A stretch of DNA of 64,000 nucleotides. Source: Orbicella franksi (lineage: Eukaryota). Under the pieces are notes generated by a model. It saw only the letters and a list, made by a program, of their open reading frames with translations, ran no database searches and was not told the DNA's origin. This document shows, in pieces, positions 1-21,600 of the stretch; the stretch's first letter is position 1; the number at the start of each line of letters is the position of its first letter. Both the position numbers and the translations under genes were made by a program. The stretch is taken from positions 32,984,001 through 33,048,000 of the forward strand of contig OZ116699.1 in assembly GCA_964199315.1 (NCBI GenBank), in the 5' to 3' direction.

Positions 1-847
1 GCGCGTGTTTTTCGCACATTCAGTTTCTGTTAGAGAACAAGTTATTTTGTATGCCTGCGTTGTTACCGGAAATAGAGACATTTCGCCTTATTGTCCTTCT
101 TTTTATGATGGCACAGACAGTGATTTTGTGGTGGAACAATTATCGCGCGGTTCAGTTCATGTAGCTAATGCAAAGCGCGAAACATGGCACACGAAAAAAT
201 AGGGGAGAGGCGTGGCACCAGTTCACACCATTCACTGAATTCACGCTTCTGGGTTATAGTTCGATGACGAAATGAGCGGTAAAAAATTATTCCACAATTA
301 TTTTTCTTAAACAGTTAAATCCTTGCTTCTTTGACTTGCCCCAGGGAATGTAATTTTCAACAATGTAACATCAGTTAAAATCAAAGACATTTCATTGAAT
401 TCTCTCATGAATGAGCTATTTTTGTGAACATAGTTCTTGATCTAGATCTTACATTGAGGGGCCCGATAGTATCACCAGTTTTGTATATTATTATGTGTCC
501 GTGGCTGTGTGGGTATTTGGATGCATGTGTGTGTGTGTGTGGACGGGGGGAGGACGCCGGTATAAGAGGGATTGTGCAGTATGTTACATTTTCTAAAACA
601 TATCATTTTTCAGGTGTAAAATTAACTGCGTGAACTATAAGAAGCACAGCTAAAGATGCTGCAAACGTTACCCGATGTCATGGACTTGTACCCAAGAAAA
701 GATGAGCAAATTTGTTGATGAAATCACGAGATTAAGTTTGTGAATCTTTTATGCTGATCGTCCAGTGTATATTTATGACATTACACTGATCTGATTGATA
801 CATTTTGTTAACGAGTTAACGAGTAATGATGCTGTTAATAGCAATAC

Positions 848-3605
848 TTTTACTGTGAACGGCCTTTAACATTCCAACAATGCCGGGGTCTTTGCTGCGA
901 AACTTTGCACTTAACTGTGTGAAACTTTTACGGTGAACGACCTATAACATCCCAACAATGCCGGGGTCTTTGCTGCGAATGTTTGCACTTAACTGTGTGA
1001 AACTTTTACGGTGAACGGCCTATAACATCCCAACAATGCCGGGGTCTTTGCTGCGAAACTTTGCACTTAACTGTGTGAAACTTTTACGGTGAACGGCCTG
1101 TAACATCCCAACAATGCCGGGGTCTTTGCTACGAAACTTTGCACTTAACTGTGTGAAACTTTTACGGTGAACGGCCTATAACATCCCAACAATGCCGGGG
1201 TCTTTGCTACGAAACTTTGCACTTAACTGTGTGAAACTTTTACGGTGAACGGCCTATAACATCCCAACAATGCCGGGGTCTTTGCTGCGAATGTTTGCAC
1301 TTAACTGTGTGAAACTTTTACGGTGAACGGCCTGTAACATCCCAACAATGCCGGGGTCTTTGCTGCGAATGTTTGCACTTAACTGTGTGAAACTTTTACG
1401 GTGAACGACCTATAACATCCCAACAATGCCGGGGTCTTTGCTGCGAAACTTTGCACTTAACTGTGTGAAACTTTTACGGTGAACGGCCTATAACATCCCA
1501 ACAATGCCGGGGTCTTTGCTGCGAAACTTTGCACTTAACTGTGTGAAACTTTTACGGTGAACGGCCTATAACATCCCAACAATGCCGGGGTCTTTGCTGC
1601 GAAACTTTGCACTTAACTGTGTGAAACTTTTACGGTGAACGGCCTGTAACATCCCAACAATGCCGGGGTCTTTGCTACGAAACTTTGCACTTAACTGTGT
1701 GAAACTTTTACGGTGAACGGCCTGTAACATCCCAACAATGCCGGGGTCTTTGCTACGAAACTTTGCACTTAACTGTGTGAAACTTTTACGGTGAACGGCC
1801 TATAACATCCCAACAATGCCGGGGTCTTTGCTGCGAATGTTTGCACTTAACTGTGTGAAACTTTTACGGTGAACGGCCTGTAACATCCCAACAATGCCGG
1901 GGTCTTTGCTGCGAATGTTTGCACTTAACTGTGTGAAACTTTTACGGTGAACGGCCTATAACATCCCAACAATGCCGGGGTCTTTGCTGCGAAACTTTGC
2001 ACTTAACTGTGTGAAACTTTTACGGTGAACGGCCTGTAACATCCCAACAATGCCGGGGTCTTTGCTGCGAAACTTTGCACTTAACTGTGTGAAACTTTTA
2101 CGGTGAACGGCCTGTAACATCCTAACAATGCCGGGGTCTTTGCTGCGAATGTTTGCACTTAACTGTGTGAAACTTTTACGGTGAACGGCCTGTAACATCC
2201 CAACAATGCCGGGGTCTTTGCTACGAAACTTTGCACTTAACTGTGTGAAACTTTTACGGTGAACGGCCTATAACATCCCAACAATGCCGGGGTCTTTGCT
2301 GCGAAACTTTGCACTTAACTGTGTGAAACTTTTACGGTGAACGGCCTGTAACATCCCAACAATGCCGGGGTCTTTGCTGCGAAACTTTGCACTTAACTGT
2401 GTGAAACTTTTACGGTGAACGGCCTGTAACATCCTAACAATGCCGGGGTCTTTGCTGCGAATGTTTGCACTTAACTGTGTGAAACTTTTACGGTGAACGG
2501 CCTGTAACATCCCAACAATGCCGGGGTCTTTGCTACGAAACTTTGCACTTAACTGTGTGAAACTTTTACGGTGAACGGCCTATAACATCCCAACAATGCC
2601 GGGGTCTTTGCTGCGAAACTTTGCACTTAACTGTGTGAAACTTTTACGGTGAACGGCCTGTAACATCCCAACAATGCCGGGGTCTTTGCTGCGAAACTTT
2701 GCACTTAACTGTGTGAAACTTTTACGGTGAACGGCCTGTAACATCCTAACAATGCCGGGGTCTTTGCTGCGAATGTTTGCACTTAACTGTGTGAAACTTT
2801 TACGGTGAACGGCCTGTAACATCCCAACAATGCCGGGGTCTTTGCTACGAAACTTTGCACTTAACTGTGTGAAACTTTTACGGTGAACGGCCTATAACAT
2901 CCCAACAATGCCGGGGTCTTTGCTGCGAATGTTTGCACTTAACTGTGTGAAACTTTTACGGTGAACGGCCTATAACATCCCAACAATGCCGGGGTCTTTG
3001 CTGCGAAACTTTGCACTTAACTGTGTGAAACTTTTACGGTGAACGGCCTATAACATCCCAACAATGCCGGGGTCTTTGCTGCGAAACTTTGCACTTAACT
3101 GTGTGAAACTTTTACGGTGAACGGCCTATAACATCCCAACAATGCCGGGGTCTTTGCTGCGAAACTTTGCACTTAACTGTGTGAAACTTTTACGGTGAAC
3201 GGCCTGTAACATCCCAACAATACCGGGGTCTTTGCTGCGAAACTTTGCACTTAACTGTGTGAAACTTTTACGGTGAACGGCCTGTAACATCCTAACAATG
3301 CCGGGGTCTTTGCTGCGAATGTTTGCACTTAACTGTGTGAAACTTTTACGGTGAACGGCCTGTAACATCCCAACAATGCCGGGGTCTTTGCTACGAAACT
3401 TTGCACTTAACTGTGTGAAACTTTTACGGTGAACGGCCTATAACATCCCAACAATGCCGGGGTCTTTGCTGCGAATGTTTGCACTTAACTGTGTGAAACT
3501 TTTACGGTGAACGGCCTATAACATCCGAACAATGCTGGGGTCTTTGCTGTGAAACTTTGCCCTTAACTGTGTGAAACTTTTACGGTGAACGGCTTTAAAC
3601 ATCCC
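848..3605. repeat. 78-bp tandem minisatellite, about 35 copies
   Basis: The unit ttttacggtgaacggcctataacatcccaacaatgccggggtctttgctgcgaaactttgcacttaactgtgtgaaac repeats head-to-tail. Only a few sites vary (tata/tgta, gctg/gcta, aaact/aatgt, ccca/ccta). The terminal copies are degenerate. Confidence 0.98.
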
Positions 3606-9839: not shown

Positions 9840-10580
9840 GGGTCCTGACCAAGTTGATAACGCCAGGAACGAGGTCTTCCAAGATTGCGAGAAACACAGC
9901 CGTGTCAGACAACCGGGAGTAATGTTCAGTCATTTCACCACTCTGCCACCCTATGTATTGCGCGACATCCTGTTGCGAACAACCAAACAATCGCTAAGTA
10001 TATCACAAACCCACCAGGGAACTATGGGGGGTTTCACCATCGATAAGCTTAGCCTCGACGAGATACCCACGAAGCCGGTTATTAACCGCCGAGCCGGCAA
10101 AGGGCCCTGAACCAACATCCTTATTGCGGTCAGACGCTCTAAAGAAAAAATCTGGAGCTACGTTAAGTAAATCACACGCAGAAAGGTAATAGGTTATCCA
10201 ATTAACCGGGCTCACAACCGATTTGCAAGAGGGAGTCAGCGAAAGAACGGGGGGGGGGGGGGGACCCTTACGCAAAGTCTTAGTAAGGATAAAGTGTAAC
10301 AGGTAACCCTCAGGATCCTTTAATTTAAAAACCTGGCTAGCCAATGACCGACCTAAATCCGACGCCTTATCGGCCGTAAAGAAATCTACGACAAAAAACA
10401 CGGCATCTCGATCTAATACACACTTATTACTTCTAGAAAGCGATTGGCTATTGCTTATCTTTTTCCGTAAAAGAGCACGTAATTTCTGAAACTTTAGGAA
10501 GAACAATGGAACCGCTGGTGATGGACAAACGGCCAGACCTGCTTGCTCTTCCTGAACAAACTTAACTTCAAATATTCCTT
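9840..10580 (-). pseudogene. Tyrosine recombinase C-terminal catalytic half (DIRS YR)
   Basis: The translation is KEYLK/FVQEEQAGLAV...DRDAVFFVVDFFTADKASDLGR...TKTLR...FFFR...SAVNNRLRGYL...GETPHSSLVGL*YT*RLFGCSQQDVAQYIGWQSGEMTEHY. It carries degenerate H-x-x-R, (H/W) and catalytic Y motifs, with in-frame stops. Confidence 0.88.
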
Positions 10581-10584
10581 ATTT

Positions 10585-13418
10585 AACGTGTGGCCGGTCC
10601 CTCTAGGGTGGGAGGGACTGAAGAAAGTGAAAGGTGCCACCACCACCACCACCACCATCATCATCACCATGAAAAAAAGAACTTGATGAAGCCTCAAAAC
10701 TGCAGATGGAAATAGAAAATCAGGAAATAAAAGTAACCTATTCTCAAGCCAAAGATGCAACTGACAAGTTTATGGAAATGACCGGAGATGACCAGAGGTC
10801 CTTCAATCACAAGCTTTTAACTGGAATCCAGGGCCACTCCAAGGAAGGAAACGAATTAATTGAGGAACTAACCAACGGAGCAAGGTAAATTTATTTTACG
10901 ACTTTTAATGGATCACAAGATACATTAAAAGTACTAAGTTTCATTCTATGTTTCAGGGAAGAACCTGATGGAGTTTATGGTCCACCACCAATAAAAAAAG
11001 GGTATTTGTCGATCTCCAGAAAGAAAACGCCAGACCAGTAAAATCTGGCCCTCCCCATAAAAAAGGAGCGAAAACAAGAGCTCAAAAAATAAGGGCGTTC
11101 AGCTCCCCCTTAACAGCCCATTGGACAGCGAAGAAATTAATGAATACGAACATCGCCACTATCACAGACATCCTGATTATCACAAGGGTGATCTTGGTAG
11201 GAAGCCCCTAAATTTTATAAATTACCGCAAACAAAATTTCACATTCATCCAGAGGAGGATCTGACTTATGCAGTTTGGAACAATATTTCATTGGCTAATC
11301 GATAATTTATTTAGACGATTTTTATTGACTTTTTTACTGATAATTATCGATTATCGATCGGTGACAGCCTGACCGATTGGTAAGCGTGACAAGCTTATGT
11401 GAGCGATCGGTCAGTGTGACGGATGGCCTTTGGTGACCCAAACCGATCGGTAAAGTTGAGCCCGCGACTATATGAGCCTGCAACGAGAAAAAATATTTTT
11501 TTAAATTCAATTTCCCGTTTTTTTAAGTTTTGAGTTCTCGGTCTTGAGCCCGCGATCCTGAGCCTGCAATACTTGGGTACCTAAAAACGTCTAGGTGAAA
11601 AATCATATACCCTTGACTTTTGTTAGAAAGGGGTTTATATCGCTGGCTCAGCCAAAAACATGGCGGGCTCATGTTCGCGGGCTCAGTTTTTGAAAAAAGT
11701 GGGCAGATTCGAAAAAAACGATCATTTTTTGTTTAATGGCCGGCAGAGCAAGACTTTTGGAAGCCAACAGAGCAAGGTGAGGCCAAATTCACCTTAAAAT
11801 GGTCTCAGGGTGTAGTTCTTCTATCGAGGAAGTTAGGGATACACCTTTTCACGAACTTTCTGACATTATCGGAGAGGTAACGCTAGAACAAACTGAAATT
11901 CCTTTTAGCGAGTGGGATTCAATGTAAGATGTCTGGCCTGCGGATACACCTACGTCAGCGCATGACTGGTGGAATCAATATCAAAAGGATAATCCTTACG
12001 GGCCCGCTCCAAATCCATTTTCTTTTACTGTACCCGATGTTGCAGAAGAAGACGATGAGAGATCTGTTCTTAGCCTCACCAATGAAGAGTATGATAAGGC
12101 CCTCGCAGATATTGAGAAACTTCTTGAAAAAATGAGAGCGACATCTCCCTGGGAGAGTTACGTTTGGCGTAGAGTTCCCTGGGGTTGTGGTGGTAGCCGT
12201 GATGTGGCAGCCAAAAGGCTTGCGGGATTGTGGTTATATGTTGCAAATAGTGCTCACCCGGCAATTGTAGAAGAATCAATGAAATTTTTGTTTCTGCATG
12301 GTAGCCCAAAAATGATGACAAAAGCTCTTGTAGGAACTCTTACAAATTTAAGGAGTGGTTATGGTCAGGTTGTGGGACCTCCCTTTCTTAGATTTTAAAC
12401 AACGGAACCCCCGAAAATGAATTTTTATTAAGAAACCTATAGGGGCCAATATGCCAGGAGAAAAGGCTATGAGCAGGGGAGGAAGCTCTTATCAATACAC
12501 GGGAATTTTTGAACAAACAGCTTTAGCTCTTCAAACAGCTCTAGATAGTTCTAGAAGGGTACTAGGAAATTGCATTGATAATTCTGTTTACAACTGCCAG
12601 GAAAATGCAGACTACGGAGTCCGCTTCGGATACCCCAAAGCCTAGCTAAGAACGTGAGGTGGCCGGTCCCTCTGAGGTGGGAGGGACTGAAGAAAGTGAA
12701 AGGTGCCACCACCACCACCACCACCACCACCACCACCATCATCACCATGAAAAAAAGAACTTGAGGAAGCCTCAAAAGTGCAGATGGAAATAGAAAATCA
12801 GGAAATAAAAGTAGCCTATTTTCAAGCCAAAGTTGCAACTGACATATTATGGAAATGACCGGAGATGACCAGAGGTCCTTCAATCACAAGCTTTTAACTG
12901 GAATCCAGGGCCAGTCCAAGGAAGGAAACGAATTAATTGAGGAACTAACCAACGGAGCAAGGTAAATTTATTTTACGACTTTTAATTGATCACAAGATAC
13001 AATAAAAGTACTAAGTTTCATTCTATGTTTCAGGGAAGAACCTGATGGAGTTTATGGTCTACCACCAACAAGAAAAAGGGTATTTCTCAATCTCCAGAAA
13101 GAAAACCCCAGAGCAGTAAAATCTGGCCTTCCTCCTAGAAAAGGAGCGAAAACAAGAACTGAAAAAAAGGACGTTCAGCTCCACCTTGACAACCAATCGG
13201 ACAGCGAGGAAATTGATGAATAGGAACCTCGCCATCATCACAGACATCCTGATTATCACAAGGGTGATCTGGGTAGCAAGCCCCTAAGTTTTATAAATTA
13301 CCACAAAAAATAATTTCACATTCATCCAGGAAGAGGAACTGGCTTACGCAGTTTGGAACAATATTTCATTGGCTAATCAATAATCTATTTTAACGATTTT
13401 GATTGACTTTTTTTTTTT
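10585..13418 (+). mobile_element. Unidentified insert with two ~750-bp direct repeats (10585-~11335 and ~12651-13418) flanking a 1.3-kb internal region
   Basis: The two copies align over their whole length (aacgtg..ggccggtccctct...cagtttggaacaatatttcattggctaatc...attgactttttt) at roughly 90% identity by eye. The block sits between the N- and C-terminal halves of the YR. Confidence 0.85.
11736..12645 (+). pseudogene. Degenerate ORF of unknown family within the insert, probably spliced
   Basis: ATG at 11736 plus a putative 52-nt GT-AG intron (11777-11828) gives MAGRARLLEANRARKLGIHLFTNFSDIIGEVTLEQTEIPFSEWDSM*DVWPADTPTSAHDWWNQYQKDNPY...FLFLHGSPKMMTKALVGTLTNLRSGYGQV. There is one internal stop, and a frame break follows at about 12400. 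Confidence 0.45.
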
Positions 13419-13890
13419 GGCATGATCAAGGCGACCAAGACCGTTAAAGATGGGTCTGAGCTTGCCAAAAAGGGAGTCTGTAGTACCAGCGGCCAAACGT
13501 CGGATACACTTACAGGTCACCCTGGAGCACGTGGGGGCGTGAACCAGTGTTCGCCCTGATTTGTTCTTATGAAAAAGGAATTTTATCACGACATCTGCCG
13601 TACAAGACGATATAATCTTAGGCGGGAAAGCCGACGCGAGGAACGTGGAAAATTGCTGCTCCAGAGCTGACTTCTGACGCTGATAGAGCTTGCTGCTAAC
13701 AGAAGACTTAAAGTTTTGGAAGCGTTCCTGAATCGCCCTCTCATCCACAGCATCTTGTCTTTTCTGAACAGCTGGTTTAAGAGGAGCGGTGGCTACTCCA
13801 CACGCCTGGCAAAAGTTAGCGTCCTCATCGTTTGGACATAAGCATGAAGGGGAGCGACGGGCGGGTTTCCAAGGCCGCAGAACCCGGAAA
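13419..13890 (-). pseudogene. Tyrosine recombinase N-terminal half (Cys-rich ribbon plus core-binding region)
   Basis: ORF 13377-13976 reads WKPARRSPSCLCPNDEDANFCQACG...YQRQKSALEQQFSTFL...RRLAAGTTDSLFGKLRPIFNGLGRLDHA. It then runs into the poly-T end of the insert. Confidence 0.75.
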
Positions 13891-13899
13891 ACAGACCAT

Positions 13900-14660
13900 A
13901 ACGAATGGGAAAAAGACCTAGAAAACGCAGCGGTAAGACCATAAATCCCACTGCAGGTTTTGCGCCGACCATGCAAACAAGCGCAGAGCGAGAAGGGAGA
14001 AGCATTGCGGTTCCGTCGCCTTTCCTGCCGAGCAAGAGACGGTCAACTGCGACAGCCCGAAGAAGAACCCACCAAAAACATCTTGGATGCACGTCGGAAA
14101 CTACCAGAGTAGAATTCTGATCCACAAAATACTTTAAGAGTGGCCCGACTAAAACAAAGGGCGGATAAACTTAAATGTTATGCCCCAACGGAATGGGTTG
14201 CGCGAAGGCGTTAACCCCTTGAGAAGCCGGAGTGATCTCTTCGACAGTTACTGTCTAACGACATGAGATCAAATGAGTGTGGACCAGAACGACTCTCCAC
14301 CAAATCCCAGCCTTCCTCGGACAGCATGCAGTCTAGGTCAGAACACGCCCGCTATGGCTCGTCTGCTGGATTGCCCTGAGAGGGGACGAAATGAACATCA
14401 ATGGCAAAGTTCAATTGACGGCTACACAGTAAAATCGCCTTGACGGATTCGTTACTAGAGGAACTCTTGCAGCCAAAATTCTCCAAGACAGCCCTGAGGG
14501 TTCGATTATCGGTATGAACATCAACCCTACAGTCACGGATGTGATCTATAAAAGCGAGTAGAGAATGCAGCAAAGCCTTAGCATCGAGAGAGTTGATGTC
14601 ATCCGAATCATCTAGCCAATAATCCTTTTCTATCTTCGAGGGGAACTCCGCCCCACGAGC
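13900..14660 (-). pseudogene. DIRS RNase H and methyltransferase-like (MT) domains
   Basis: RNase H: RVDVHTDN...DVHFVPSQGNPADEPSR. This is followed by GPHSFDLMSLDSN...NAFAQPIP...VYPPFVLVGPLLKYF, which matches the PPF-type MT domain of DIRS elements. Confidence 0.75.
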
Positions 14661-14719: not shown

Positions 14720-15719
14720 CATCTAGGAAACGCTAATACTGTATATCCGAGCGGAGTTTTCCCTGGACTTTAGTAGCCACCTTAAAAGAACGCCTAAGCT
14801 GGCTATGGCGCTAAATACTTCGCGGACATAAAGCTTGCAACCAGGAATGGCTAAACTAAGGGAAACGAATTTTCCCGCGAAAAGCTGCAAAGGCTTGAGA
14901 TTGGCCAGAGAACATAATAAAATGCTTTCCCTCAAAATCCCAGACTTTGTCTTCTTATCCGGGGGAACTAAAGACTGTTCCGCATGACGGTAGTCGATAT
15001 ATTGCGGTAGGGGAACTCCAAATGAGCGAGCAGCGTGGGAAACGATTGTGGTAGATAAAGGCGCTCGCCTTCCAACCTAAAGGCAGGTCACGAAACACGA
15101 AGAAAACATTTTCCCATTCGAGCCCAAAGTAAGTGTATGACGATGGATGGAGATGGACATGCCGATACCCACTTTTATTGTGAAAAGTGGTCTCGAAATG
15201 CCCCCGCAAAACATACCAAGGTAAATCTGAAAGGTGATCCAATTGAAACGGAAGATCCCTGACCCACAAATTTAAAAATCTTTCATCACGGCAGAGACGA
15301 GGCTTTGACGGTTCGACCGTGATAGGAAGAACCAAATGGGGCAGCGATACGACCACGACCTCGCCCCAAACTGCTAACACCCCAGAGGCCTCCCACTGAG
15401 CAATGGTATGGCTTATGAAATCAGTAAACTGTTTGCAAACAGCTGAATTATTAATTTGAGGGGCGGGAGACGTCTGCGCATGATAAAATTGCCCTTTAAA
15501 GTCCTCCTTAAACGTGGTGAAAAATCGCTCCATCGGAACGTCATCTTGTACTATCTCGAGAAGATCCACAGTAGAACAGCTAAAATCTGCCAGAAGATGC
15601 TCCCACACTGGTGAACTGTCATGAATCATTCCAGCTCTAAAATGGTCTGAGTCACGGAAACGAAGCTGATTTAAAACACCTCGATCTGGGCGCGAGAAAA
15701 CCATCTCAGTGAAAGCCAA
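14720..15719 (-). pseudogene. DIRS reverse transcriptase
   Basis: ORF 14955-15719 contains PHLVLPITVEPSKPRLCRDERFLNLWVRDLPF...KSGYRHV...YFGLEW...LPLGWKASAFIYH. It is frameshifted before the YxDD region. Confidence 0.9.
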
Positions 15720-16419
15720 GGGGCCAAAGAAGGGTTGGGTTCCTGTAACAGAGAGCAGATGGGAACAGGTGTACTTGACCGCATGTGCGAGTCCCGAGCC
15801 TCCATGATCTGAGAGGCGAACAGAATTTTTTGCCTAAAACGGGGCAAAGAAAAACGAGAACGAAAACTAAACGATGGACCAATATTTACAGGGAAACCAA
15901 CCCCTCGTTGACCCTAGAATTCGAACCAGGTCCAGAATAGAGACGCATACAAGGTCCCCCAGGGTCAACGATGGGAAAGGTAAAAATGGAAAAAAAAAAA
16001 AACTAAAGAGACAAAGCACAGAGAAATATTTGCAAAAAATACACGGTAAACAAAAGGCTTGCAACTGAGTCCACAAACAACTAAATCAGCGAGAGTTGCC
16101 ACGCCAACCTCCATTCGGAGCACCACGTCCTCTACCATATGGGAACGGCGTCTGGGAGAATCTATAGGCGCGGGCGTAATGCCCTCGAAGACCACATCGG
16201 TAGCACCGATGTGGTCAACCCCAACATCAAGCACTGTAGTTCAGAAGAATTCAGCGAGTCCCACCTTGCCCGCACTTTATCCAACGCCGCGGCATACTCT
16301 TCAGCTTTTTGGTGAGCCTGTTTGCGTGCGAGGCGCACTAAGGCCTGTGGAAGGTCCAGTACCTCAAAACGATCGAACGCATTGTTGGGACGGTTAAGAT
16401 ACCTTCTAAGACTCCTCAA
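15720..16419 (-). pseudogene. gag-like ORF1 remnant of the DIRS element
   Basis: A helical ORF fragment (LRRYLNRPNNAFDRFEVLDL...EEYAAALDKVRAR) lies directly upstream of RT on the same strand and is frameshifted. The call rests mainly on position. Confidence 0.5.
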
Positions 16420-17523
16420 AGTACCCTCAGTGGTCTGTAAGGCCTTGTCCTGCTCAAGCGCTCTCTAACGGAACCAAACGATCGCCGGTCTGACAAAACG
16501 GACAAATAATAAAAAAAGCACAACTTAAGCGAACGAAACACAAACACAGCAGCAAAGTGCATAGACCAGTGTAACGAACAACATAAAAATAAAAATTCAC
16601 GGACGAAATAACACAAATCTAACGAAAATAAAAGACGGCAACGAAAATTTTGCGTAAATGTAAAATAGAATAAACCGCAGCACTGCTCAAAAATGACTTC
16701 CAGTGTCAACAAAACGAAAAAACACTAATAAAGCATTAAAGAAACGATAAACGTCTATTCCTCGCTATAAAGCGGTAATTACTCGCTGACAAAACGAAAA
16801 CTTCCAGCACTCAAGTTTGCAAAACAGCACAAGAAATAAGCGGTGACTCCTTGCCTACAAAGCGGAAACCTCGAACAATCATGAATATAACAAAAAATAT
16901 AAACATGATAATAGATGCGAATGCAAAAACAAATATTCACTAACTCATGGACCTTTTAGCAGAAATCGGCGCTGAACTAGAAAATAAATTTGTGCAGCTT
17001 CTATATTCGAATGTCTTGACTAAAGTGTGACGCGTATTGTCTGAGATGATGTGAAAAAATGAGCTCCACCACATTTTATTTTCTTTATATGCGAAAATAT
17101 TGCAATGATGCGCTGCTGATGCAAATCGCGAGAAATCTGAATTTGGGTTAAAAAAAGAAAAGAAAGGGAAAAAAAAGACATTAAAAAGGAAATTAAAGAA
17201 AGAAAAAAGTTATGAAAAAGAAACCCCGACCCCGACCCTGACCCTGAGTCCTCGTTTTACTGACACCCAAAGAGAAAATACCTCAGCCTCAACCATTGGA
17301 GGCGGTTCCACTTCTACGCCGACGGGGACAGCGCCAGTCGCCGGTTCTTCTGGAGTCTCAAAAGGTCCAACACCAAACAACGACAAACGCTTCCTAGCCC
17401 GGAACGCCGGCAAAATGACATTGATTGAGTCAAAACACGGGAATTTAAACGAAGAGACCACAGAGCATCATGCCCGCCCTGTGGCATAAAAGCGTGGTGA
17501 AATTTGAGGTATTAAACAGACTA

Positions 17524-17682
17524 GCCCTTTTCACGGTTAACTTTCCTCATTTGCATTACGATAAAATCTAGCATGTATGTGAGGCAATCTTGGGCTAGTT
17601 TGTAACTTTAGCCCGAAATTGCCTCGCATCCACGTTGGATTACATTTTAATGCAATTGAGAAAAATTAACCGTGAAAAGGGC
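17524..17682. mobile_element. Palindromic MITE
   Basis: It has a perfect 17-bp TIR (gcccttttcacggttaa / ttaaccgtgaaaagggc) plus internal inverted segments (gaggcaat/attgcctc, gggcta/tagccc). Confidence 0.8.
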
Positions 17683-18604
17683 AATTCCACGATGCGCTAA
17701 CTATGTATGCAGAGAGAATACTACAAGGACGTGTCTTCGCCTGTACCCAACCTGTTTACTATAGGCAGGGTCGACAGTAATTCACACTATTGAACAACTC
17801 ACGCAAACTTTGAACTTTAATAGCGGAAAACCACTTTGATAATACTGGTATTTCATCTAACGTTACACATGTATTTCATACTTTTTGAATAATGCTCTAC
17901 ATAATAAATAAATAAAAGATTCCTTTTCGTATCACCCTCGCTCTTGCTCTCTGTCGATTTGTTACAAATAAAATAAATGAAAGCGGACAAAAACCGGACA
18001 TATTGAGTAACGTATACGTATCAATAACCACTATCATTCTAAAAGGTGGTAGCAGGTTATGAATTGAAAACAGTTTTTTCATTTTTCCGTTTTTAAAAAG
18101 AAATAGATAGATAGAACTTAAACAAAAACAACAACAACAACAAAATAAAACCGTGAGAACAACAGCATAAAAAAAACTAGGCCTGGGCGGTGGAAAACGA
18201 AACACTTTATGGGGATGGCCTAACACGTATCGAGAACACCTTGATTTAATTTGTCAAGCTCTTTTAGTTAGATGCACATGTATCTTGACGTTCCTGTGAT
18301 AATCTCTTAATGGACTGCGCTGCTTAAAATTTTTTCAGAAATTGTGGGCTTTGGCTAACGTCCTCCAGAATCCTTACGGTTTAATTTAAGCAACTTCACA
18401 GTGTGTTACTTTCGAGTTTTGGAATTTATGCGGTTTATTACGAATATTAAAGTACCTATGACACATTAATAAACGCCTTGTACTAAATCTCGCATGAAGC
18501 ACCTTTAATATCGAGTTCATTTGCTCTTCAGTATACCTGCATCCGAATTTTAGGCTCGCATATATAATTTGGCCTAGCCTCGATGACTAAACACCTGATT
18601 GTGT

Positions 18605-21600
18605 TCATTGAGCTTTAAGGAGATCTTTCAGTGAGTTTTTAAAAATGAATAATTTTTTTGCCACCCTTTCTCTTTTTTTCTTTTGGTGTTGCATGCGCTC
18701 ATTTGCTTTGGTCTCGGCTGCTTCCAAAGACTCAAAGACCGAAGTGAATTTCCTGTCTGCTGTTTGCGTCAGCTCTTCCAGGTTCTCGTGTGCCCTTTTT
18801 AAAAGTGAACTTTGCGATTGTTGGTCTTCCAAACCTGGTCCATCTTTTTCGTTCAGATGGCTTATTTCTTTCTCTCTGATGGGCTCTAGCACCGGTTTAT
18901 CACATCGATCCGGCACACCTTGTTCTGGGGAGCTGAGGGAGTTGCCCGCATATCCAGCGTCCACGAAATCTACCGCCTCATCGCGCGCCAGTTGATCAGG
19001 GTCATTAATTAAACTTTCAAAGTGTCCCAGCTCTTCCAAAACTAAATGATTAAGTTTTTCGAACTCTATGTCTGCATTGTCAAGCTCTCCTTTTACTCGC
19101 TCAACAATTTCGTCAACCCTTTTCCAGTTTGAAGTCATCTTTCCTGTCATGCTGTCTGTTGTTGCTTTAATCGTCCTGATCAGATGGGCATCATCGTTCG
19201 GAGATGGACACAACTATAAACATATACAAACAGAACGTGTCAATTGATAGCCATACAAAAAAGGCAATGGTATAGTACTGATCTATATGGCTTGAAGCCT
19301 TACCTCTATAACTCCTTAAAAAGGCAGAACCAGCAAGAGTTGTTGACATAATGATGTTGCGAGTAAATATAGAATTTACAATGTGATAATCGATTTTCTT
19401 TGCCTTTCCTCGCGGTATTGTCCAAAAGAAACAGAAAACAGAAACACTCGTGAACGTTTGGAAGAACTCTAAAAAGTCTTGGGACTTGTATCCTTACAGC
19501 ATTTCTCGTTCTCCCAAACTTCCACTCGTATTTCTATTTAAAAATTAGATTATGCCCTTTCGATTCCTCTATAAGAAACAGAGAACCTTTCCGTGTTCCT
19601 ATCAATTTCGTTGGCATACCAATGGAAAATAATGTTGTCAAAAATATGGTTGGCTGAGCTATCGTACACTATCAGAAGCACACAAGGTGATATGCTTCTG
19701 ACACTATACAAAAATTAGACTACGAGCCCGAGTTTTCCATGGACGAATAGTCATCAGACCTTTTGATCGGTCAGATCAGTCCTTTAAGCCGTCATGTACT
19801 AACCTTGGCTAGCACTCTTATTCCTGTGTGTCCCATGCCTATGAATGGGTACAGCGATTTTGCGGCCGGATTATACTCGATTAAAATCTTATCCTGAGTG
19901 ATCTGTTTGCCGTTTAAAGTGAACTTAATAGGCACTTTGTCATCTTCCAACTCGTTAAACATGACTGTGCAGCCGATCAGATCTCCTCTGTAAGCCATGG
20001 CGCCTGTGCAAAAGAAAAAGATCGACAGTCAGTGTCGCGTAGTGCGATCACCACACTGACCAACAACTACAAAAATGAGAACTGTGTTTCCGCCAAAAAC
20101 TTTTACATCAACATGGCGACTAAAAAAACCCAACACACACAAAAACACGAGGTCTCGATTCACGTCACTATCTCTGCATCTGACCACAATTCCAGATACG
20201 TGAAGTGCACAAAGCTGAACTAAAGGTTATTAAACTAGATCAATGTCTTTATAGTCGCGACAGTCAATGTCCGTCACAATAGTTATGGGAGATATAGAGC
20301 GTTTTCACTCACGAGACCATGCAGCAGCCATGTGAATTTATTGGAACAAAAGAAAGCAGCTCCAACAGGATATGTTTGAGACACCAACATGGCCGCCGTT
20401 TCATTGTTTTGGAACACCAATATGGCTGCCACGATGTCATGTAAGAACACACTATTGTGTCTTCAAGTGTATGGCAGCGTGTTTGAGAAACTCAACGAGA
20501 ATTTGTTACATTTTATGGTGTTGGACACGTGTATGTGCTCTGGAGTGTGCAATGCGTGTACCGGTATGAAACACAAGTGTAGCAGCTCTCATAAGCTTAT
20601 AATTCTTTTGCATGTTAGCAGCTGTTATTGTTTTGGGGCTGGAGACATTGTTTCTGTTGTTCGTTCAATCGTTCTATCAAGAGTATCAAGCCATTCATGT
20701 GAGACCTTTAGAGAGCTGCTCCCTTACCGATATGAAAAAGTTCCGCACGCTTAGCCAACGGGGAGCTGGGCACATGTAAGTTTCGTGGAGGTCGACAAAT
20801 TTTTACCACGTGAAAATGTCCGTGTAGGTTTAATAGCACGTTTTCACTCACGTGGCCAGCATTCATACAAATTTATTGGAGCAAAATAAAGCGTAAAGAG
20901 TTCAACTCCCACATGATTGGTTTGGTACACCAATATGGCCGCTGTTTCATTGTTTTTGAACACCAATATGGCTGCCGTGACGTCATGTAAAACGCTCTAT
21001 ATGTGAGGAAGCGCTGCCTGGACAAGACTGACTAATTCATGTTGGAATATTTAAACGCTTGTAATGGGACAACTTTGTTATGTCAAAGTTCTACTTTTTT
21101 CCGAGGCCTGGAGGAATAAAGCAAAAGAATCACATTTAGGTCGAGGAATGAAAAAATATTTTTGTATTCCATTAAGTCTCGGTGCCAAGTTAGAATTTAG
21201 CACATCGATACTGGCAAATTTTGAATTCCTGCTGAATTCTTAACCTCCGATAAGTATGTTTAACAAAAAAGCAAAACACGATAACGGAGTGAGGACATTC
21301 CTATTTTCGTTTTGCAAGTTCTTTTAAAATGTTAGAATAGTAATATTTTATGGACTTTCAACCCTTAGTTTAGTTGAACGAAAAATATATTTTTGATTTG
21401 TTTATTTTAGCAGTGTCTATATTATTTTAACAGTGTGTATAGTTTGCCATAGTCAGCTCTTATTCCCACTGTTTACCTTCATCTTCCTTCCCGGCAAGGT
21501 TAACAGGCTTAAATGGTCCCAATATTTTGCCTTCATCGACAAGACACCCCACCGTTCTTTTTAACTGTCCCGGCATGGCGTGGTTTCCGTAATCCTTCCA

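Follow-up and report, generated by a model that had tools for sequence, protein, structure and literature searches.

Endogenized small circular single-stranded DNA viruses, namely CRESS and anello-like viruses, have a unit of about 2 kb, laid out as one structured control region with overlapping, probably spliced frames. Small replicons without a recognizable replicase or capsid escape homology-based surveys of viruses and transposons. Helentrons and HINEs are described in PMC4067079 as ending in a variable number of T residues at a TT target and as carrying 12- to 15-bp subterminal inverted repeats, which lie a few nucleotides from the 5' end and about 38 to 60 nt from the 3' end. Tandem and truncated multimers of rolling-circle elements are on record in PMC5148889. 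For Penelope-like elements (PLEs), PMC8557442 gives as hallmarks a 5'-truncated copy together with a full copy, retained introns, and the trans-mobilization of intron-containing genes; partial-tandem geometry and intron retention are also found in bioRxiv 10.64898/2026.07.22.740005 and PMC4209133.

Here, we analyzed a 64,000-nt stretch of the Orbicella franksi genome (contig OZ116699.1, positions 32,984,001 to 33,048,000 of the forward strand; hereafter, the window), which carries at 10590-13416 the fossil of an unclassified element. The insert comprises 1.36 head-to-tail copies of a 2,078-bp unit, that is, a 746-bp tail fragment and one whole unit, the unit length being given by the matching bases 11329 and 13407. 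The original prediction of direct repeats of about 750 bp was borne out by the alignment:

10590..11335, plus strand: copy A1, the 5'-truncated 3' third of the unit, 746 bp (repeat alignment).
12659..13413, plus strand: copy A2, the 3' third of the whole unit (repeat alignment).

The starts of the two repeats are 2069-2078 bp apart, and the copies are 92.8% identical, with differences in 53 of 740 aligned columns. The CAC/CCA tract reported earlier is present as a CAC/CAT tract. As far as its layout can be interpreted, the unit reads as one compact transcription unit, with a control region, a short first exon, two overlapping frames, an intron, and an end at a T-run. At this locus, the insert is probably a dead fossil.

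The insert breaks the minus-strand frame of a DIRS-type tyrosine recombinase (YR), as had been proposed. The N-terminal part of this frame contains an ALOG domain (Pfam, E 8e-16), which we take to be a mark of DIRS-type recombinases.

10003..10589, minus strand: 3' part of the split DIRS-type tyrosine recombinase frame, decayed (sequence comparison).
10590..10593, unstranded: left junction, 4 nt readable as either recombinase or insert, a putative microhomology (comparison with L005, L012, and L016).
13419..14042, minus strand: 5' part of the split recombinase frame with the ALOG domain (Pfam and comparison).

The target was compared with the two closest intact relatives among 17 recombinase matches in the O. 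franksi genome. Relative to these uninterrupted copies, the target has lost about 13 nt, equal to four codons plus one base, and no sign of a TSD was seen, in agreement with the original prediction on both points. At the right end of the insert, TT comes from the target, as do probably 4 nt at the left end. Both alleles, namely the window and L005, a metagenome contig carrying an allele of the same insertion with identical junctions, have a local 5-nt duplication about 15 nt away from the left junction.

The 497-Mb assembly, queried at the DNA level with the repeat, the junction, and the unique part and also in a protein search, yielded no other copy of the insert; these searches give lower bounds on copy number. 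Neither of the results that would have spoken against the original prediction was obtained: no known TE or host gene matched, and the target carries a small deletion in place of a TSD. Among the coral runs listed, 20 of 24 contained the insert stretch, 14 of them with at least half of its words; the positive runs come from 10 studies and cover four organisms as well as coral metagenomes. The word share was 0.00 in four of the 24 runs, which is no proof of an empty site. Between the alleles, the insert and the DIRS element have diverged by about 5% and 4%, respectively, and the host flanks by 1.3-2.2%. Because insert and DIRS have diverged alike, the insertion predates the allele split.

Next, we consider the ends of the unit. 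The right end is a T11 run, as predicted, and the corresponding run in the first copy is T6.

13408..13418, plus strand: T11 right end, of which the last two T are possibly the TT of the target (sequence and target comparison).
11296..11353, unstranded: unit junction, with the 12-bp inverted repeat arms 11296-11307 and 11342-11353 placed asymmetrically around the T6 run at 11330-11335 (sequence).

The claim that the insert has no TIRs overlooked this repeat, which is perfect and longer than any other perfect inverted repeat of the insert; its 34-nt loop encloses the point to which the insert's right end maps, and a comparable repeat arose in 1 of 1500 resamples of the junction region. The repeat is perfect only in window copy A1, with mismatches at the real right end and in L005. 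A 15-nt word taken from it has 11 matches in the genome (control, 4), 10 of them at other sites in ATCGAT-rich repeats unrelated to the unit; none of these 10 sites is near a Helitron match when coordinates are compared by eye. Given the mismatches at the right end and in L005, and given how common ATCGAT-rich words are in an unrelated repeat, the inverted repeat may have arisen as a by-product. As a separate observation, L047, L049, and L051-L057 form a dispersed, diverged repeat family, about 300-450 bp long and 75-85% alike, that consists of ATCGAT palindromic words and possibly represents the subterminal regions of a DNA transposon.

These ends resemble those of Helentrons and HINEs (Helitron2; DINE-1, HINE-Mo, and FoHeli) in the variable T-run end, the TT target, and the lack of a TSD, and possibly also in a 12-bp, partly palindromic, asymmetric inverted repeat (in the insert, perfect in A1 only) at similar distances from the ends. 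The T count, the TT target, and the distances in A1 agree with the Helentron and HINE ends in PMC4067079 and PMC5148889. Internal repeats of variable copy number and tandem or truncated multimers are further shared features. The TT target and the variable terminal T-run are found at the right end of the insert only, the left end being truncated. In contrast to Helentrons, which do not modify the target site, the insert has about 13 nt of target deleted, a loss that may be due to its 5' truncation. No clear 3' palindrome was seen in the insert (by eye, 5- to 6-bp imperfect stems), and it differs further in occupying a single locus with no Rep-helicase remnant and no partner found and in carrying two orphan frames that lack a host parent. 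In this coral, Helitrons appear to have been active recently, as the genome contains at least 117 Helitron_like_N matches, many of them in open frames of 1,400-2,900 aa. Across 20 of these loci, searched with 10 kb on each side, no sequence or motif words were shared with the insert; when the surroundings of Helitron loci were scanned loosely for asymmetric repeats, the matches were non-specific.

The predicted control region of the unit is as follows.

11336..11735, plus strand: control region, predicted origin/promoter (CpG, palindromes, repeated words, and single-stranded DNA fold).

Its CpG observed/expected ratio is 1.31, and it contains ACCGAT(C/T)GGT palindromes (two in the window and five in L005), an A/T tract, GCGGGCTCA words in both orientations, and a TATA-like word at 11634. 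All window matches of two 9- to 10-nt words, the palindrome and GCGGGCTCA, lie inside this region (3/3 and 4/4). The single-stranded DNA fold of the region is far better than that of shuffled sequences (z -5.9). With 15 resamples each, the two alleles gave z -3.3 and -4.9 as compared to +0.3 to -1.6 in four other windows of the insert. The repeated palindromic words alone can be sufficient for this fold score.

The remainder of the unit is occupied by the following candidate exons, introns, and frames:

11736..11776, plus strand: short first exon candidate, from an ATG to a strong phase-2 donor at 11777 (sequence and splice-site score).
11777..11836, plus strand: 60-nt GT-AG intron candidate (same length in both alleles).
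11781..12642, plus strand: ORF1, an orphan with a predicted helical bundle in its middle (open frame and model).
12650..13220, plus strand: ORF2 pieces, with an acidic/Ser-rich start, a His tract, a predicted coiled coil, an intron, and a basic Pro-rich part; decayed.
10885..10956, plus strand: 72-nt AT-rich GT-AG intron candidate in copy A1 (sequence).
12962..13033, plus strand: 72-nt GT-AG intron candidate in copy A2 (sequence).

The donor at 11777 is the strongest of the insert and is kept in L005, while the acceptor of the 60-nt candidate is one of several possible; 12 of the 60 sites differ between the alleles. ORF1 had been described as decayed, and it is indeed interrupted in the window, by a stop at about 11925 and a shift of frame at about 12420 (L005 is broken at other places), but it is still mostly open, with 1 stop over 11781-12395, where the five alternative frames have 7-21. 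Taken by itself, the 156-codon frame is not remarkable, as 6.8% of nulls matched it. ORF2 overlaps the end of ORF1 and continues through the His tract, the predicted coiled coil, and the 72-nt intron candidate. The 72-nt segments have a GC content of 0.24-0.25 as compared to 0.40-0.42 in the flanking frames, and the frame ahead of each segment meets a stop within the donor and continues in phase past the acceptor. Thus, the part of the original prediction that concerned the segment and its phase holds in both repeats, and from sequence we infer that it would be spliced. No splice joint was found in four RNA runs. These yielded 16 low-depth contig pieces, which cross both candidate donors unspliced and also span both host junctions of the insert; DNA carry-over or read-through is enough to explain them. 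Because no comparison showed a synonymous excess (4/21, 4/13, and at most 6/16), support for protein coding is confined to the open frames. The locus decays neutrally.

We searched for relatives of these frames by sequence, profile, and fold. Among 1.84 billion protein representatives, six matches were obtained, two of which were real (85-90% identical, on short contigs); the other four were dropped as chance matches to bacterial repeat proteins. A search with ORF2 found three near-identical proteins, and the true protein matches, 85-100% identical in all, are consistent with further alleles. Searches among longer proteins gave no match. Pfam, PHROGs, and PDB sequence searches of the insert frames gave nothing above noise, and the single-sequence fold models were of low confidence (pLDDT 41 and 58), with no Foldseek match at E<=0.001 for either. 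IMG/VR yielded no protein relative, and its motif scans returned 15 and 14 motif loci that share nothing else with the insert. The only Atlas lead was PriCT-2 for ORF1 (score 0.87-0.88, 133-139 shared features), which is below the recognition bar and was not confirmed by Pfam; a second Atlas query was uninformative. Together, the sequence, profile, and fold searches recognized no replicase, transposase, RT, or capsid in the insert and no relative outside this locus, and no earlier description of such an element was found in the parts of the literature available to our search.

The unit shares with endogenized small circular single-stranded DNA viruses its size of about 2 kb, its single structured control region, and its overlapping, probably spliced frames, and it is likewise a single-locus fossil with variants 7-15% apart. 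In contrast to CRESS viruses, it has neither ordered Rep motifs nor an SF3 Walker A; the minus-strand HLHF and YCSK words are misordered and lie in stop-ridden frames. More generally, Walker A is absent from all six frames of both alleles, no ordered HUH motifs or RT motif were found in the insert, and the CRESS nonanucleotide is missing, with no TATTAC on either strand of either allele. Likewise, the insert showed no anellovirus ORF2 motif, and Foldseek with the low-confidence models gave no capsid match. The palindrome-rich control region is reminiscent of NS1-type parvovirus EVEs; as compared to these, the insert has no NS1/SF3 similarity, its junction is not a terminal-hairpin bridge, and its unit is half the usual parvovirus size. 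A parvovirus NS1/SF3 reading had been put forward with reservations. We rejected it, as its words are drawn from two frames, the alleles P0006 and P0013 continue in a different frame, and neither a Walker A nor a Pfam match was found.

We also considered whether the insert is a piece of a larger virus or element, such as a defective, internally deleted genome or an amplicon with the origin and a few genes, that multimerized before capture, so that the 2.08-kb unit was never a complete genome. The lack of a recognized replicase or capsid, the origin-like iterated palindromes, and the weak resemblance of ORF1 to PriCT-2, whose score of 0.88 is below the bar, are in keeping with such a piece. However, the unit is a coherent cassette from promoter to 3' end, and neither the IMG/VR protein and motif scans nor the longer proteins revealed a larger relative. 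We regard this origin as distinctly unlikely.

As compared to LTR retroelements (TRIM/LARD), the insert has no TG..CA ends, as originally noted, and also no PBS, PPT, or TSD. As compared to deltavirus-like RNA circles, the circular fold of the unit is not an unbranched rod but has 43 hairpin loops with 62% of bases paired, and neither a ribozyme (Rfam) nor a delta antigen (Pfam) was matched. The insert departs from each of the families tried in one or more defining features, and we therefore file it under none.

PLEs share with the insert a 5'-truncated copy before a whole copy (the pseudo-LTR) and retained introns. In a non-autonomous or trans-mobilized PLE partial tandem, a PLE RT would have copied the unspliced unit RNA more than once. 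This explains the geometry and the intron retention equally well; moreover, the 72-nt intron candidate sits within the repeat, the target is deleted rather than duplicated, and the only CUGANGA..GAAA word pair of the insert lies about 30 nt from the left break. In contrast to PLEs, the insert contains no RT or GIY-YIG remnant, its repeat matches nowhere else in the genome, and it has no 3' similarity to, or partner in, another element. The predicted promoter is in the unique part, outside the repeat. The hammerhead ribozyme of the PLE pseudo-LTR, which is absent in Naiad/Chlamys, was not found in the insert: its hammerhead-like words are separated by a 4-nt gap in place of the 7- to 8-bp helix II of PLE ribozymes, no hammerhead fold forms, and Rfam gave no ribozyme match, so that the hammerhead reading was rejected. 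On this evidence, we regard a PLE origin as unlikely.

Differences between the copies and between the alleles are concentrated in two tracts.

11051..11335, unstranded: tract containing 20 of the 23 positions at which, in both alleles, A1 differs from A2 (alignment).
11621..11880, unstranded: tract diverged by 15% between the window and L005, as compared to 5% in the rest of the insert (allele alignment).

In the first tract, whose boundary was chosen after looking at the data, fixed differences occupy 20 of 283 columns (7%) as compared to 3 of 442 elsewhere (Fisher 2e-6, KS 2e-5), while private changes are uniform along the repeats (KS 0.45). In the second, 38 of 257 sites differ between the alleles as compared to 126 of 2530 elsewhere, a contrast that none of 5000 permutations reached; both tracts were defined with one other full allele, L005. 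Despite the divergence, the ATG, the donor, the 60-nt spacing, and the repeated words are kept, and both sequence types are present in one RNA run. The pattern between A1 and A2 could have arisen by conversion between the two copies, whereas the difference between the alleles needs an outside template. This suggests that variants 7-15% apart once coexisted with the locus.

A further candidate is a host or symbiont orphan gene fragment that was inserted at a break and underwent a 750-bp local duplication. The spliceosomal-type intron, the TATA-like word, and the CpG-rich promoter are host-like, orphan genes are common, and the insert is at a single locus. Nevertheless, no parent gene was found in the genome, the frames overlap and are extremely compact, the A-U-A layout requires duplication of the whole unit followed by truncation, and the 7% and 15% tracts require outside templates. 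We thus consider a host or symbiont fragment improbable.

On balance, we lean slightly toward the insert being a multimer that arose by rolling-circle replication of a small circular DNA with no recognizable replicase and was end-joined into a chromosome break. A head-to-tail concatemer or circle captured at a break had been proposed earlier; the concatemer of a compact unit fits, as do the lack of a TSD and of any known TE or host match, and the source may have been either virus-like or a mobile element. In this multimer model, one control region would act as both origin and promoter and drive alternatively spliced messages for two overlapping orphan proteins, and the unit would end at the T-run between the arms of the inverted repeat. 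Since the unit has no recognizable replicase, copying would have fallen to a helper virus or a Helitron2/Helentron-type Rep-helicase acting in trans, or else to an enzyme too divergent to recognize. Joining of an over-length single-stranded product to the break would then have relied on TT on the right side and on about 4 nt on the left. The likely source of both hyper-diverged tracts would be recombination with variant copies now missing from the assembly. Retention of introns in both copies is as expected for a DNA intermediate. Our searches revealed neither a free circle nor a second locus nor a helper. A bolder version, which we advance only tentatively and as rather unlikely, is that corals have an undescribed class of circular DNA replicons of about 2 kb (satellite-, plasmid-, or virus-like) and that the unit represents one complete genome of this class, with an iteron-type origin, alternative splicing, and two proteins without kinship to known replicases or capsids; its diverse population would have lasted long enough for repeated recombination with its own germline fossil.

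As a concatemer, the fossil yields the unit length, the ends, and the gene layout directly, and it provides probes for living relatives in corals. If the insert is instead cargo mobilized by a Helentron or a PLE, it is an example of such elements moving a compact, orphan two-gene cassette.

Several further features were observed around the insert. The closest DIRS relative by DNA (L010, G000:C1:6911569-6911878; 74%) has likewise lost the part of the recombinase in which the insert sits. The L005 allele lacks 105 bp of DIRS (window 10434-10539) that the window and L010 have, as well as about 1.3 kb of the RT region (window 14977-16285). Three identical-scoring DIRS fragments with a deleted recombinase core (L007-L009, G000:C13:15.54-15.65 Mb) lie about 55 kb apart and probably stem from a large tandem duplication. 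A 79-bp inverted repeat (80% complementary, 11-nt loop) that is kept in L005 occupies window 17519-17687, toward the 5' side of the DIRS element. Window 846-3605 is a 35-copy tandem array of a 78-bp unit (96% matches), in which one minus-strand frame is nearly open as a 26-aa repeat. Last, a 202-aa open minus-strand frame at window 18605-19213, coiled-coil-like and with no Pfam match, is almost invariant in L005 and is probably a host exon.
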